Source of the DNA: an uncultured Nitrososphaerota archaeon
GTDB taxonomy: Archaea; Asgardarchaeota; Njordarchaeia; Njordarchaeales; Njordarchaeaceae
Direction of reading: 5' to 3'
Length of the DNA stretch: 33,908 nt
Assembly: GCA_964518475.1 (NCBI GenBank)
Contig: CAZFGR010000016.1
Coordinates: forward strand, 1 to 33,908
Position numbers and translations under genes: made by a program. Below the pieces are notes generated by a model that was given only the letters and a program-made list of their open reading frames with translations, searched no databases and was not told where the DNA came from. Position 1 is the stretch's first letter. Each line of letters starts with the position of its first letter. Shown here piece by piece: positions 4,753-29,278 of the stretch.

Positions 4753-5145
4753 ATGTCTGAAAGAGAAGAGTGGATAATTTATCCTGAGTATTTCGACTCT
4801 AGACTATCTCGACGATTGGGAAGAAAAGTAAGTCTCCAACATGCGATTAAATCCCCCCAATTAGAGGAATTGTATGAGGCCTTGAAATACTTAAAAATTC
4901 GTGGCATTAGAATAGAAAAGGACAAAAGCCACCCAGCTAATTGGATTGAGAGAAAAGGACGGATAATTATATACAAAATCCCTGGAAAAAGTAAACATTC
5001 TCTACTTATAGAAATTGCAAAAGCACTGAAACATGTAAGGATTAAGATGCTTAGAAAGAAAAAGGTCGAAGAAGCGGAAAAGAAGAAAAAGAAGAAGAGA
5101 AAAGACATTGAGAAATACCTTGAGAAGTTCATGCAGAAAAAATGA
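4753..5145 (+). CDS. srp19: Signal recognition particle protein SRP19 with basic C-terminal extension
   Basis: IIYPEYFDSRLSRRLGRKV, P...EL..A, K.HPANW...GRI, K..LL..IA. Confidence 0.9.
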   Translation: MSEREEWIIYPEYFDSRLSRRLGRKVSLQHAIKSPQLEELYEALKYLKIRGIRIEKDKSHPANWIERKGRIIIYKIPGKSKHSLLIEIAKALKHVRIKMLRKKKVEEAEKKKKKKRKDIEKYLEKFMQKK

Positions 5146-7511: not shown

Positions 7512-7605
7512 TGGAGCCGCGGGCGGGATTCGAACCCGCGACCTCGGGATCTCTTGTATAGCGATTATTACAAGTCCCGCGCTCTACCAGCTGAGCTACC
7601 GCGGC
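7512..7605 (-). tRNA. tRNA-Thr(TGT) with 18-nt canonical intron (7551-7568), CCA encoded
   Basis: Cloverleaf GCCGCGG/CCGCGGC-T-CCA, anticodon loop CT-TGT-A^A, intron CAAG pairs with C32-G35. Confidence 0.93.
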
Positions 7606-18257: not shown

Positions 18258-18671
18258 CTAAACGGGGAAGATGCTTAAAATTAAGATCCCTAGAATGATC
18301 GTGGTTAATAGGATCAACATCCATTTCTTGTAAACTTTTGTTTCTACTTCCGCTTCTAGCAGAGCTTTCGCTTCTTCTAGAGTGATTTCTAATTTTTCTG
18401 CAAATTCCTTCGCTCTAGTATCGAGCCTTAATTTCTCTTTAAGAAGTTGCACACGCAGGGATAAACTAGTACTAAATAGAAGAACCACGGTAAGGAGAAA
18501 AAATACTGCTCTCCCTTGAATCTTCATTATATACCAGTATCCAAAGCTAATTATCGTTAATACTCCAGTCACGAGCATGTACACACTAAGCATTTTTTCG
18601 ATACGTGTTTTACCCAAAAATACTCGTTCAAATAGATTCTTGGCATTACTTGCTTTTTCATAGTGACTCAT
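18258..18671 (-). CDS. Hypothetical membrane protein (3 TM, internal charged helix)
   Basis: 137 aa, three hydrophobic segments, RBS-like GGGG upstream, co-directional with the upstream phosphoesterase. Confidence 0.7.
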   Translation of the reverse strand: MSHYEKASNAKNLFERVFLGKTRIEKMLSVYMLVTGVLTIISFGYWYIMKIQGRAVFFLLTVVLLFSTSLSLRVQLLKEKLRLDTRAKEFAEKLEITLEEAKALLEAEVETKVYKKWMLILLTTIILGILILSIFPV

Positions 18672-19824: not shown

Positions 19825-20589
19825 ATGGAGTATCTCTCCCAAGAATTTCTTTATTTTTTCATAGTCTTCATGATACCATTTATCCTTATAGTTATTCTTC
19901 CATTCCTTATCTCGTACATAAAAGGGGAGAAAGATCTTAAACGAGCCGTTAATACTTACATTAAAAGTCTTAGAAAAATACAGAAAACAGTTTTAAGTAA
20001 CAAACTCGCGGATCATAAACTCCTAAGATCAAAATTATCAATCAATTATACAATTAAGATTACAGAGCCCCCATCAACAATAAATGCTGAAATCTCTCTA
20101 ATTGAACGTCGCACTTACGTTTACTATCTGTATAGGCTATTCAAACCTCTCCCAGACATTTTAATAATTCGAGCTAATTTAGAGGCTCCCTCGCCAGTAG
20201 TACCTGTCTATATCATACCTCGTCACAGAAAAAAGTTGATAAACAAATTGATGCCGTACCTGGCTGAATTGAAAGAAATACGGATAAAAGGGTTAAGTGA
20301 GAAAGCAATTATTGTTAGTTCAGAACCACGTTATGCTGTCCAATATTTTACACAAAAAACATTAACGAAAATATCGTTCTTACTACCTCATTTAAATTTC
20401 CTTTTCATTGATTCAGCGGCACCGAATATAGAAATAAACACCTCATTACAAGAAAAGACTTGTTCCTCGATTTTTAATATATCATTTACTTTATGTCTGG
20501 AACTACTAGATCGAATTGCGAAAAGCAAGAAAGGAGGAAAAGAAACAGATACTTTAAAGTACCTCAGAAGAGTCTTGCTAAGCCTCTAA
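19825..20589 (+). CDS. Single-pass membrane protein, candidate CCDC47 (PAT complex, DUF1682)-like
   Basis: GGTGA RBS, N-terminal TM ending SYIKGEK, colinear similarity to the recalled CCDC47 globular domain. Confidence 0.55.
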   Translation: MEYLSQEFLYFFIVFMIPFILIVILPFLISYIKGEKDLKRAVNTYIKSLRKIQKTVLSNKLADHKLLRSKLSINYTIKITEPPSTINAEISLIERRTYVYYLYRLFKPLPDILIIRANLEAPSPVVPVYIIPRHRKKLINKLMPYLAELKEIRIKGLSEKAIIVSSEPRYAVQYFTQKTLTKISFLLPHLNFLFIDSAAPNIEINTSLQEKTCSSIFNISFTLCLELLDRIAKSKKGGKETDTLKYLRRVLLSL

Positions 20590-20608
20590 AGGAATCAAGA
20601 ATAGTAAA

Positions 20609-21709
20609 TTATGTAACTTCTTCGTCCATCTCTTCTCTTTCTTCTAACTCTCCCTCTAATCCCTCCAGAAGCACCTCTGCTTGTTCTTCTTCACTCATCT
20701 GCAAAAACTGCTCCAGAAATTCATCCGTGAGTAATCCGTGCTCAACCAAAAATTCCAAGTCTCTATAGTCGAGTTTGCCCTCTTCCATGATTTTAGCTCG
20801 AATCTCTTGTAATCTTCGTTGTATTAGTTTCTTAAGCTCTTCTTTTCTTCTCAGTTCTTCTTTTTCTTCTCTAAGTTTACTGATCCTTCTTAGTGTTAGC
20901 ATTATTTTTTGCCGGATATCCCGTATTTTCGCTAGAGCGTCATTTATTTTAGCTATTTCTTCACGAATCTCCTGAACTTTTGCATGATGTTGATCTGCTT
21001 CACTCTTTTTCTCATCCCTTATTTTTGCAAGTTCCGCTATTTTTTCATCTATTCGTCTTCTTTCTTCGTAGTAAATAGCTAAGGATCTCCTTATTGCCGT
21101 TAAGTCAGATTTATACTTCTCCAACTCTTGTCTTAGCTTCTGCAATTGCTTCCATTGTTCCTCTTGTTGTTTCAAAATTTTTAGCTTCTCCGACAATCTT
21201 AAAATACGTTCTGTTATTCTTTTCTCTATGATATCAGGCAATGTCTGCGTTTGTAAAGCCCATTCTAGCCGTTCTATCTGAGCCTGAAGCCTTTGTAACT
21301 CTCTCCTATTAAATCCCTTTATTTCACGCTCAATACTTTCCACTTGCTTACTTAGCTCCTTTATTTTTTCCCGAATCTGATTGCCTTCATTTCTTTTCTC
21401 ATTAATAAATTTCTGAAGCTCTCTTCTGCGCTCTCGCAGCTGTCTAATAGCTTGCGCTACTTCTCTGACTTTCTCATTTAATTCATTCCTCTTAGCTCGC
21501 TCATCCCTTAATATAGATATCAATTCTCTTCTTTTCTCAATTAATTTTCGAGAAATCTCTCTTAGTTCATGAAATTTTTTGCTTAATTCTCGAGATAATT
21601 GTCTTAGATCCTTATCAACTAATTCCTCGGGTGTAGCCGTTAACACTTTTTGCACTTCTTCTGGTATTTTTAGTGCGATCTGAACCTCCTCTAGCAGTTC
21701 TTTCGCCAT
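20609..21709 (-). CDS. Archaeal coiled-coil protein (COG1340-like)
   Basis: Long heptad pattern; IERLEWALQTQTL...EK.I..RI..L motif; A...H..V; acidic tail. Confidence 0.8.
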   Translation of the reverse strand: MAKELLEEVQIALKIPEEVQKVLTATPEELVDKDLRQLSRELSKKFHELREISRKLIEKRRELISILRDERAKRNELNEKVREVAQAIRQLRERRRELQKFINEKRNEGNQIREKIKELSKQVESIEREIKGFNRRELQRLQAQIERLEWALQTQTLPDIIEKRITERILRLSEKLKILKQQEEQWKQLQKLRQELEKYKSDLTAIRRSLAIYYEERRRIDEKIAELAKIRDEKKSEADQHHAKVQEIREEIAKINDALAKIRDIRQKIMLTLRRISKLREEKEELRRKEELKKLIQRRLQEIRAKIMEEGKLDYRDLEFLVEHGLLTDEFLEQFLQMSEEEQAEVLLEGLEGELEEREEMDEEVT

Positions 21710-28756: not shown

Positions 28757-29278
28757 TTAAAATGGTCTTCGACCTAGAAGTTTTAATATTGCATTAATCA
28801 GAGCAGATACCGCTAGATAACTTATAAAGTACCACCAAAAAGCATTCATTAACGTGTAATGATCACTCGAAGGACCAAACCAGTTTACTGGAATTCTGAA
28901 TGGCATTTGAATAACGGGATTTCTACCATACGCAGTCATGATGATATTAAAGACTATTATGAAAAGCAGGAAGGATATTAATAGTGGCTTAAATTGTTCA
29001 GATGAAAGTTCCATTTGAAGTTTCATGATATATTCTTTCTCCTTATTCACTTCGCTTAAGAGACGAGGATTCCCCGTTTTCATTGCGCGTTTGTACTTAG
29101 CTCGCCACTTCTTAATCCTCTCATTGTATATCCTTACCTTATGAAAGTCTATAACCAATTGCTGTATAAGAGCATAAATCACTGCTAAAAAGATGGATAC
29201 TATCATAATAAATAGCCCCGCGTATGGAGGCGTTCCAAAATTTGCCCTTATCCACTCGATAATTCCTCCAAAAACCAT
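28757..29278 (-). CDS. DUF106 / EMC3-TMCO1-Get1 (Oxa1 superfamily) membrane insertase
   Basis: TM1, cytosolic coiled coil, FKP motif before TM2, PF, WWYF in TM3; canonical position upstream of L34e. Confidence 0.85.
   Translation of the reverse strand: MVFGGIIEWIRANFGTPPYAGLFIMIVSIFLAVIYALIQQLVIDFHKVRIYNERIKKWRAKYKRAMKTGNPRLLSEVNKEKEYIMKLQMELSSEQFKPLLISFLLFIIVFNIIMTAYGRNPVIQMPFRIPVNWFGPSSDHYTLMNAFWWYFISYLAVSALINAILKLLGRRPF

Follow-up and report, generated by a model that had tools for sequence, protein, structure and literature searches.

A CCDC47-like membrane protein of Njordarchaeales and its relatives among the Asgard archaea

It is known that CCDC47 (calumin) is a subunit of the PAT complex and of the multipass/SND3 translocon, and that it corresponds to the Pfam family PF07946, formerly DUF1682. 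In eukaryotes, it is a central scaffold of the translocons by which multi-pass membrane proteins are built. According to the published view, prokaryotes lack PAT components (PMC9630114). A DNA stretch of 33,908 nucleotides from an uncultured archaeon of the order Njordarchaeales (hereinafter, the window) raises the question of whether this view holds for the Asgard archaea, because one of its genes had been tentatively described, from the sequence alone, as encoding a minimal CCDC47. A conserved Asgard family of this kind would give the endoplasmic reticulum factor CCDC47 an archaeal root and, if it were true that a forerunner of the PAT complex/multipass translocon existed in Archaea, the view of prokaryotes without PAT components would be contradicted. 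The literature was searched for CCDC47 or the PAT complex/multipass translocon in combination with Asgard, for TtfA in combination with CCDC47, and for DUF1682, and no relevant paper was found.

The gene and the predicted architecture of its product

The open reading frame lies exactly where the preliminary description had placed it (Table 1). It starts with an ATG codon directly preceded by a Shine-Dalgarno-like motif (GAGGTGA) and by an A/T-rich, TATA-like stretch; upstream of this stretch, a tRNA-Ser gene is located on the opposite strand. The gene is present in a single copy in all the 14 genomes of the order, and the closest named relative of its product, assigned to Candidatus Njordarchaeales, shares 55% identity with it. 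The genome belongs to the Asgard phylum, together with Heimdallarchaeaceae, Hodarchaeum, Jordarchaeales, and Borrarchaeum. An overlapping open reading frame of 91 codons (20493-20768) is antisense to the next gene and was discarded as unsupported.

Table 1. Position of the CCDC47-like gene, of the parts of its product, and of the convergent neighbouring gene in the window (residues are numbered on the encoded protein)
Feature	Coordinates	Strand	Basis
Gene of the CCDC47-like membrane protein (P0001), 254 aa	19825..20589	+	ORF list, upstream sequence, conservation
Single membrane helix, residues 9-30, with invariant Pro26	19849..19914	+	Helix 2-55 of the model; charges; alignment with the membrane helix of CCDC47 from its residue 135 onwards
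Juxtamembrane motif YIKGEKDLKRA, residues 31-41	19915..19947	+	Alignments; HMMER alignment to CCDC47
Basic cytoplasmic alpha/beta globular domain with CCDC47 fold, about residues 56-233	19990..20523	+	Model, Z-scores, charge, conservation
Short basic C-terminal tail, residues 234-254	20524..20586	+	Tail lengths and charges by clade; model helix 242-253
Convergent neighbour encoding a coiled-coil protein of 366 aa, rich in Glu, Arg, and Lys and weakly matching DUF7121	20609..21709	-	Pfam 24.9 bits, below cut-off

A structural model was obtained with AlphaFold2 on an alignment of 18 sequences (pLDDT 92, pTM 0.85). It consists of a long helix embedding residues 2-55, hydrophobic between positions 9 and 30, followed by a mixed alpha/beta domain with about nine strands and several helices; at its end, a Gly-containing linker leads to a short amphipathic helix (residues 242-253) carrying a conserved LKYLRR motif. 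The N-terminal stub has a charge of -2 and the 30 residues past the membrane helix one of +7, which argues for an N-out/C-in topology. The protein is therefore of the reverse signal anchor type, and its cytoplasmic part is strongly basic, the net charge being +10 in the globular domain, +3 in the tail, and +18 in the whole protein. In the family alignment, no substitution occurs at Arg95 and hardly any at Asp111 and Pro200, and Gly34 of the juxtamembrane motif is conserved in 63 out of 63 relatives.

The preliminary description had pointed out that two parts of CCDC47, its lumenal domain and its long coil at the C-terminus, are missing. This is indeed the case, since just 8 residues are located ahead of the membrane helix, leaving no room for a lumenal domain (acidic in CCDC47), and just 21 residues follow the globular domain, too few for a long coil; moreover, unlike CCDC47, the Njord protein has no signal peptide.

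A weak match between the family profiles and the trypanosomatid ribosomal protein eL22 was also recorded (E 0.006 and 0.026); it involves residues from about 44 to 108 of the window protein (about 19954-20148 in the window) and is centred on an RR-Y-YL-K-F...D motif.

Similarity to CCDC47 at the structural and sequence level

The Foldseek search of the model against the PDB retrieved 7tm3_4, 9i78_4, and 6w6l_7 as the top three matches, with E-values ranging from 6.8e-9 to 4.3e-6. These are the chains corresponding to CCDC47 in the respective entries (chain 4 of 7TM3, chain 4 of 9I78, and chain 7 of 6W6L): those of 7TM3 and 6W6L were identified as such in a match of the PDB sequences performed with HMMER, and the paper on 9I78 reports the presence of CCDC47 in that complex. 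The alignment of the model with the three chains by means of VIA-align gave Z-scores of 16.9, 15.3, and 13.5. In the best superposition (rmsd 3.5), 227 residues, including the membrane helix, are matched, and residues 13-246 of the model correspond in a colinear way to residues 135-413 of CCDC47, the identity in the structural alignments being about 10%. The fourth-best structural match is the bacterial protein TtfA (Z 11.5 over 159 residues), and unrelated folds follow with Z-scores of 7.5 or less. The comparison of a structural model with CCDC47, proposed in the preliminary description as a way of checking its reading, placed only CCDC47 chains at the top of the matches of a confidently predicted model.

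The sequence comparison gave a more nuanced picture. Taken alone, the window protein does not match PF07946, even at an E-value of 10, either in the Pfam scan or in a search of the whole genome with the PF07946 profile; however, the same profile matches 6 of the 18 members of the first alignment and 36 of the 63 relatives collected throughout the phylum (best E 1.5e-9), and no other Pfam family is matched repeatedly across these relatives. The curated cut-off of the family (27.7 bits) is exceeded by four of them, with scores of 37.9, 32.6, 31.8, and 28.2 bits, the last one belonging to P0010, a member of the window protein's own clade. The matches are colinear, and that of one Heimdallarchaeaceae protein spans positions 8-314 out of the 326 of the profile; one Heimdall member is also labelled "DUF1682 domain-containing protein" by NCBI. 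In the three clades described below, the proteins matching PF07946 are 10 out of 13 in the Heimdall-type clade, 7 out of 21 in the Njord clade (E 0.1 or better), and 4 out of 13 in the CstA-linked clade.

When a profile of the 63 members was compared with the CCDC47 chain (7TM3/6W6L) using HMMER, a weak match was obtained (E 0.086), in which profile positions 16-144 correspond to CCDC47 residues 141-282; here, the juxtamembrane motif is aligned to residues 141-160 of CCDC47 and pairs with its YIIGKNKNSRLA stretch. The preliminary description had listed five colinear blocks shared with the human protein. Three of them, i.e., those including YIMNYIIGKNKNSRLA, LRFLKRQ...MRPVSDQVQIKVTM, and LQKEMQDLSEF on the CCDC47 side, were reproduced by HMMER; the last two fall beyond the span aligned by this program and within the colinear structural alignment. 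The phmmer search of P0010 against the PDB sequences retrieved nothing, and the clade-specific profiles A4, A5, and A6 did not reach CCDC47 among the same sequences, this proxy being too insensitive for ranking the clades. Lastly, no longer (fused or eukaryote-sized) relative was found with the family profile.

The absence of a Pfam match for the window protein itself, the failure of the clade-specific profiles to retrieve CCDC47, and the low identity in the structural alignments might suggest that the resemblance is due to convergence or chance, and that the protein is an unrelated membrane-anchored one. This appears highly improbable, since four independent lines of evidence agree with each other, that is, the topology, a fold shared over 227 residues, the PF07946 matches of the relatives (four of which above the cut-off), and the presence of the motifs at equivalent positions. 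On the whole, it is very likely that the Njord protein and eukaryotic CCDC47 are homologous. In both, a single membrane helix leaves most of the protein on the cytoplasmic side, a YxxG(K/N)K motif lies next to the membrane, the alpha/beta fold and the positions of R and D are shared, and a short linker leads to a basic C-terminal helix.

Clades, tails, and the wider superfamily

The family is small, consisting of 17 clusters at 50% identity among the 1.8 billion proteins searched with phmmer. Within the phylum, it was found in 113 out of 400 genomes and in 33 out of 85 genera, with a rather uneven distribution: it is nearly universal in some taxonomic families and occurs in only 1 of the 135 genomes of a large one. 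An alignment-based scan of the locus disclosed just four close relatives.

A bootstrapped, unrooted phylogenetic tree was constructed using 63 Asgard members. Its analysis revealed a Njord clade including the window protein (support 100/100), a Heimdall-type clade (95/79) plus a Hod/Hermod group, and a third clade (95/94) embedding all the 12 members whose genes adjoin cstA, together with Jord-, f18 and Borr- proteins. The HHalign comparison linked the Njord clade to the Heimdall-type one with a probability of 98.9% (E 1.6e-17) and, just as strongly, to the CstA-linked one (99.0%); furthermore, a grouping of the Njord and CstA-containing clades was not rejected by the AU test (p 0.34). Hence, according to the tree, the Njord proteins may be nearer either to the CCDC47-like tailed type or to the CstA-linked one.

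Two members of the family coexist in the genomes G058, G071, G075, G304, G308, G397, G398, and G399; in those fetched with both copies, one adjoins CstA and the other does not, and these pairs point to an old duplication.

The three types of proteins differ in their C-terminal tail, the length of which was counted from the conserved Pro200. The CstA-linked and Jord-type proteins have 32-39 residues after this position and end with the domain, without any tail. In the Njord clade, these residues are 50-60 and include a conserved tail of about 21 residues (G-x-K/R ... LKYLRR) with a charge ranging from +3 to +7, whereas in the Heimdall-type proteins they can be up to 108, with a K/E/R-rich tail of about 70 residues and a charge from +12 to +15. 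The Njord tail is thus intermediate between the other two conditions. As regards the remaining features, the Heimdall-type proteins share with the Njord form the family, the membrane helix, the motif, and the domain, but they exceed the PF07946 cut-off, and their C-terminal helix, rich in K, E, and R, measures about 56-70 residues. The model of one of them (pLDDT 90) shows a C-terminal helix of 56 residues and is superimposable on CCDC47 with a Z-score of 17.2 over 258 residues, reaching CCDC47 residue 452, whereas the Njord model stops at residue 413. The CstA-linked forms belong to the same size class as the Njord protein and have the same membrane helix and globular domain; they are, however, tail-less and located beside CstA, while in the Njord order CstA is absent and the tail is maintained. 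There is no Pfam family for these mini forms.

The conserved gene neighbourhood of the Heimdall-type proteins is also different from that of the Njord form. In Heimdallarchaeaceae (L031-L034), a gene encoding a Rab/Ras-like GTPase lies directly upstream of the CCDC47-like gene; in other families (also L035, L036, L044, L045, and L065), the upstream genes encode a DUF835-like protein and a helix-hairpin-helix nucleotidyltransferase, and the downstream one YjeF (NAD(P)HX repair).

In CCDC47, the globular domain touches the ribosomal protein eL6 and rRNA helix H25, and the region made up of latch helices and coiled coil is wedged between Sec61 and rRNA helix H24, ending at the tunnel exit (PMC7505659; PMC12572126). 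The Njord tail occupies the position of the long basic coiled coil of CCDC47 and of the Heimdall-type relatives, with 21 residues against the approximately 70 of latch helices and coiled coil by which CCDC47 braces Sec61 and reaches the tunnel exit. Judging from the tail lengths and from the roles of these parts in CCDC47, the Njord protein retains the anchor and the domain but only a stub of the tail, and is devoid of the part acting on Sec61. The series going from tail-less proteins, through the short-tailed Njord ones, up to the Heimdall-type proteins with their CCDC47-like basic coiled coil, suggests a stepwise path, in which an anchored globular domain was provided with a growing ribosome/Sec-binding tail and then with the lumenal domain and Asterix.

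The family is, in turn, part of a wider assemblage. In a structure atlas, the nearest groups are a Heimdall cluster (TM 0.79), a mostly Chloroflexota cluster (0.74), and eukaryotic CCDC47 (0.73), followed by a mostly Thermoproteota cluster (0.67) and by TtfA (0.56); the best matches of a sequence-feature search of the same atlas are unannotated bacterial clusters. The occurrence of similar models in Bacteria and Thermoproteota, together with TtfA, indicates that the anchored CCDC47-like domain is an old and widespread prokaryotic module. A closer grouping with a widespread prokaryotic family was one of the outcomes that, according to the preliminary description, would have spoken against a CCDC47-like protein. 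This outcome was observed in part, as the protein falls within a broad prokaryotic superfamily to which the mini forms linked to CstA, TtfA, and clusters of bacterial proteins also belong.

TtfA (PDB 6T84), the trehalose monomycolate transport factor A of Mycobacteriales, is an actinobacteria-specific protein that works with MmpL3. It has an N-terminal anchor and a related alpha/beta fold; compared with CCDC47, however, it has a lower structural score to the Njord model, and no sequence link to the latter was seen. Moreover, the DUF3137 profile gave no match in the genome. The known or implied partners of the superfamily in Bacteria are transporters, i.e., MmpL3 for TtfA and CstA for the mini forms. 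Since proteins with the same fold assist transporters in Bacteria, the ancestry shared with CCDC47 does not in itself prove the existence of an archaeal multipass translocon.

Genomic neighbourhood and proposed role

In the light of these partners, the Njord protein might be an accessory subunit of a specific transporter or of another membrane complex, with no role at the ribosome or SecY and linked to CCDC47 by a shared deep ancestry only. The rank of TtfA as the fourth-best structural match, the 12 Asgard relatives adjoining CstA, the similar models in bacterial and Thermoproteota clusters, and the position of the Njord clade, equally near to the CstA-linked and to the Heimdall-type ones in the analyses described above, are all consistent with this explanation. 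However, CstA is absent from 14 out of 14 genomes of the order, all of which harbor the CCDC47-like gene, so that the Njord protein is not part of a CstA module; no conserved transporter gene is found next to it, the ArsA/Get3-like genes of the genome are located on other contigs, the structural scores with CCDC47 are higher than that with TtfA, and the basic Njord tail is conserved, while it is missing from the CstA-linked forms. For these reasons, a transporter-accessory function, the strongest of the competing explanations, must be taken seriously, but we consider it rather unlikely.

The window corresponds to a housekeeping region, with genes encoding Elp3, SRP19, a GPN-loop GTPase, FttA, GatD, HflX, ProRS, a metallophosphoesterase, Hel308, RadA, L14e, L34e, kinases, Ylp1, a topoisomerase, and RsmB; none of the genes neighbouring the CCDC47-like one is a translocon gene. 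The preliminary description had given weight to the presence, in the same window, of an EMC3/TMCO1-family gene, of SRP19, and of an OST5-like gene. The first one was found at 28757-29278 on the reverse strand (E 4.6e-19 with Pfam) and encodes Ylp1; it adjoins the genes for L34e, cytidylate kinase, and L14e in the usual archaeal cluster, 8 kb from the CCDC47-like gene. SRP19 is also present (4774-5034), whereas the OST5-like gene has no Pfam support within the window. Both Ylp1 and SRP19 are known to be universal in Archaea, and such ordinary genes do not make the window special.

The partners of the eukaryotic complex were sought in the whole genome, which is 91% complete. No match to Asterix (PF03669), the obligate partner in the PAT complex, was detected at an E-value of 10, although profile searches readily overlook membrane proteins of small size, and the Njord protein differs from CCDC47 also in this lack of a detectable Asterix; TMEM147 (PF09767) gave no match either, in a weak search that was equally negative in the control genomes. 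As for the EMC6/OPTI family (PF07019), only a sub-threshold match was obtained, with a 93-aa open reading frame located on another contig (G000:C1:229598-229807, reverse strand), which covers positions 6-80 out of 81 with 21 bits (E 9e-4), the cut-off being 23.3 bits; its product may be a partner of Ylp1. What stands of the preliminary reading is that the archaeal protein is related to CCDC47 in a minimal form, without the acidic lumenal domain and the long coil; its extension to a prokaryotic PAT component and to a eukaryote-type multipass translocon is not borne out, as neither Asterix nor TMEM147 was found and the neighbouring genes are ordinary ones.

The gene facing the CCDC47-like one deserves a separate consideration. 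Its product contains 19% Glu, 12% Arg, and 11% Lys and, in the closest relative, is much better conserved than the CCDC47-like protein (85% vs. 55% identity). The two genes adjoin each other in three families of the order, in spite of different upstream genes, no other neighbour being maintained to this extent, and they may be linked. Since a K/E/R-rich coiled coil is present in cis in CCDC47 and in the Heimdall-type relatives, one might imagine a split CCDC47, with the long coiled coil supplied in trans by the neighbour. Nevertheless, the genes are convergent and thus not co-transcribed; the coiled-coil gene accompanies the CCDC47-like one in no other lineage and is also a neighbour of Hel308, lying between the two in several relatives; and the sole family hint for its product is the sub-threshold match to DUF7121. 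Overall, a split CCDC47 seems very unlikely.

Returning to the protein as a minimal relative of CCDC47, it probably acts as an adaptor at the cytoplasmic side of the membrane, where it would dock onto a machine handling multi-pass membrane proteins. We are somewhat inclined to accept this statement as a whole, i.e., that of a short-tailed homologue of the CCDC47 core working in this way. The favoured machine would be the insertion site formed by the ribosome, SecYE-beta, and Ylp1, with the basic domain facing the rRNA as the globular domain of CCDC47 faces H25; given the lack of a long tail, SecY would be neither braced nor plugged in the manner in which CCDC47 acts on Sec61. A role at the translocon is suggested by the basic surface, the conserved basic tail, the occurrence of the gene throughout the order, and the lack of a transporter as its partner, and it is a possibility worth entertaining, even if we would sooner doubt it than assert it. 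More doubtful still is the broader idea that the tailed Asgard CCDC47-like proteins, including the short-tailed Njord form, are ribosome- and SecY-associated scaffolds, representing an archaeal forerunner of the PAT complex/multipass translocon that predates Eukarya.

Two other features of the window can be mentioned. The region 18258-18671 (reverse strand), beside the metallophosphoesterase gene, encodes a protein of 137 residues, for which three membrane helices are predicted, the last two being separated by a charged helix; it is conserved at this position within the genus and matches no family. In addition, ARAGORN disclosed, beside the tRNA-His gene, a tRNA of 94 nucleotides (7512-7605, reverse strand) with no assigned identity and with a four-base anticodon (gtaa), which probably contains an intron.
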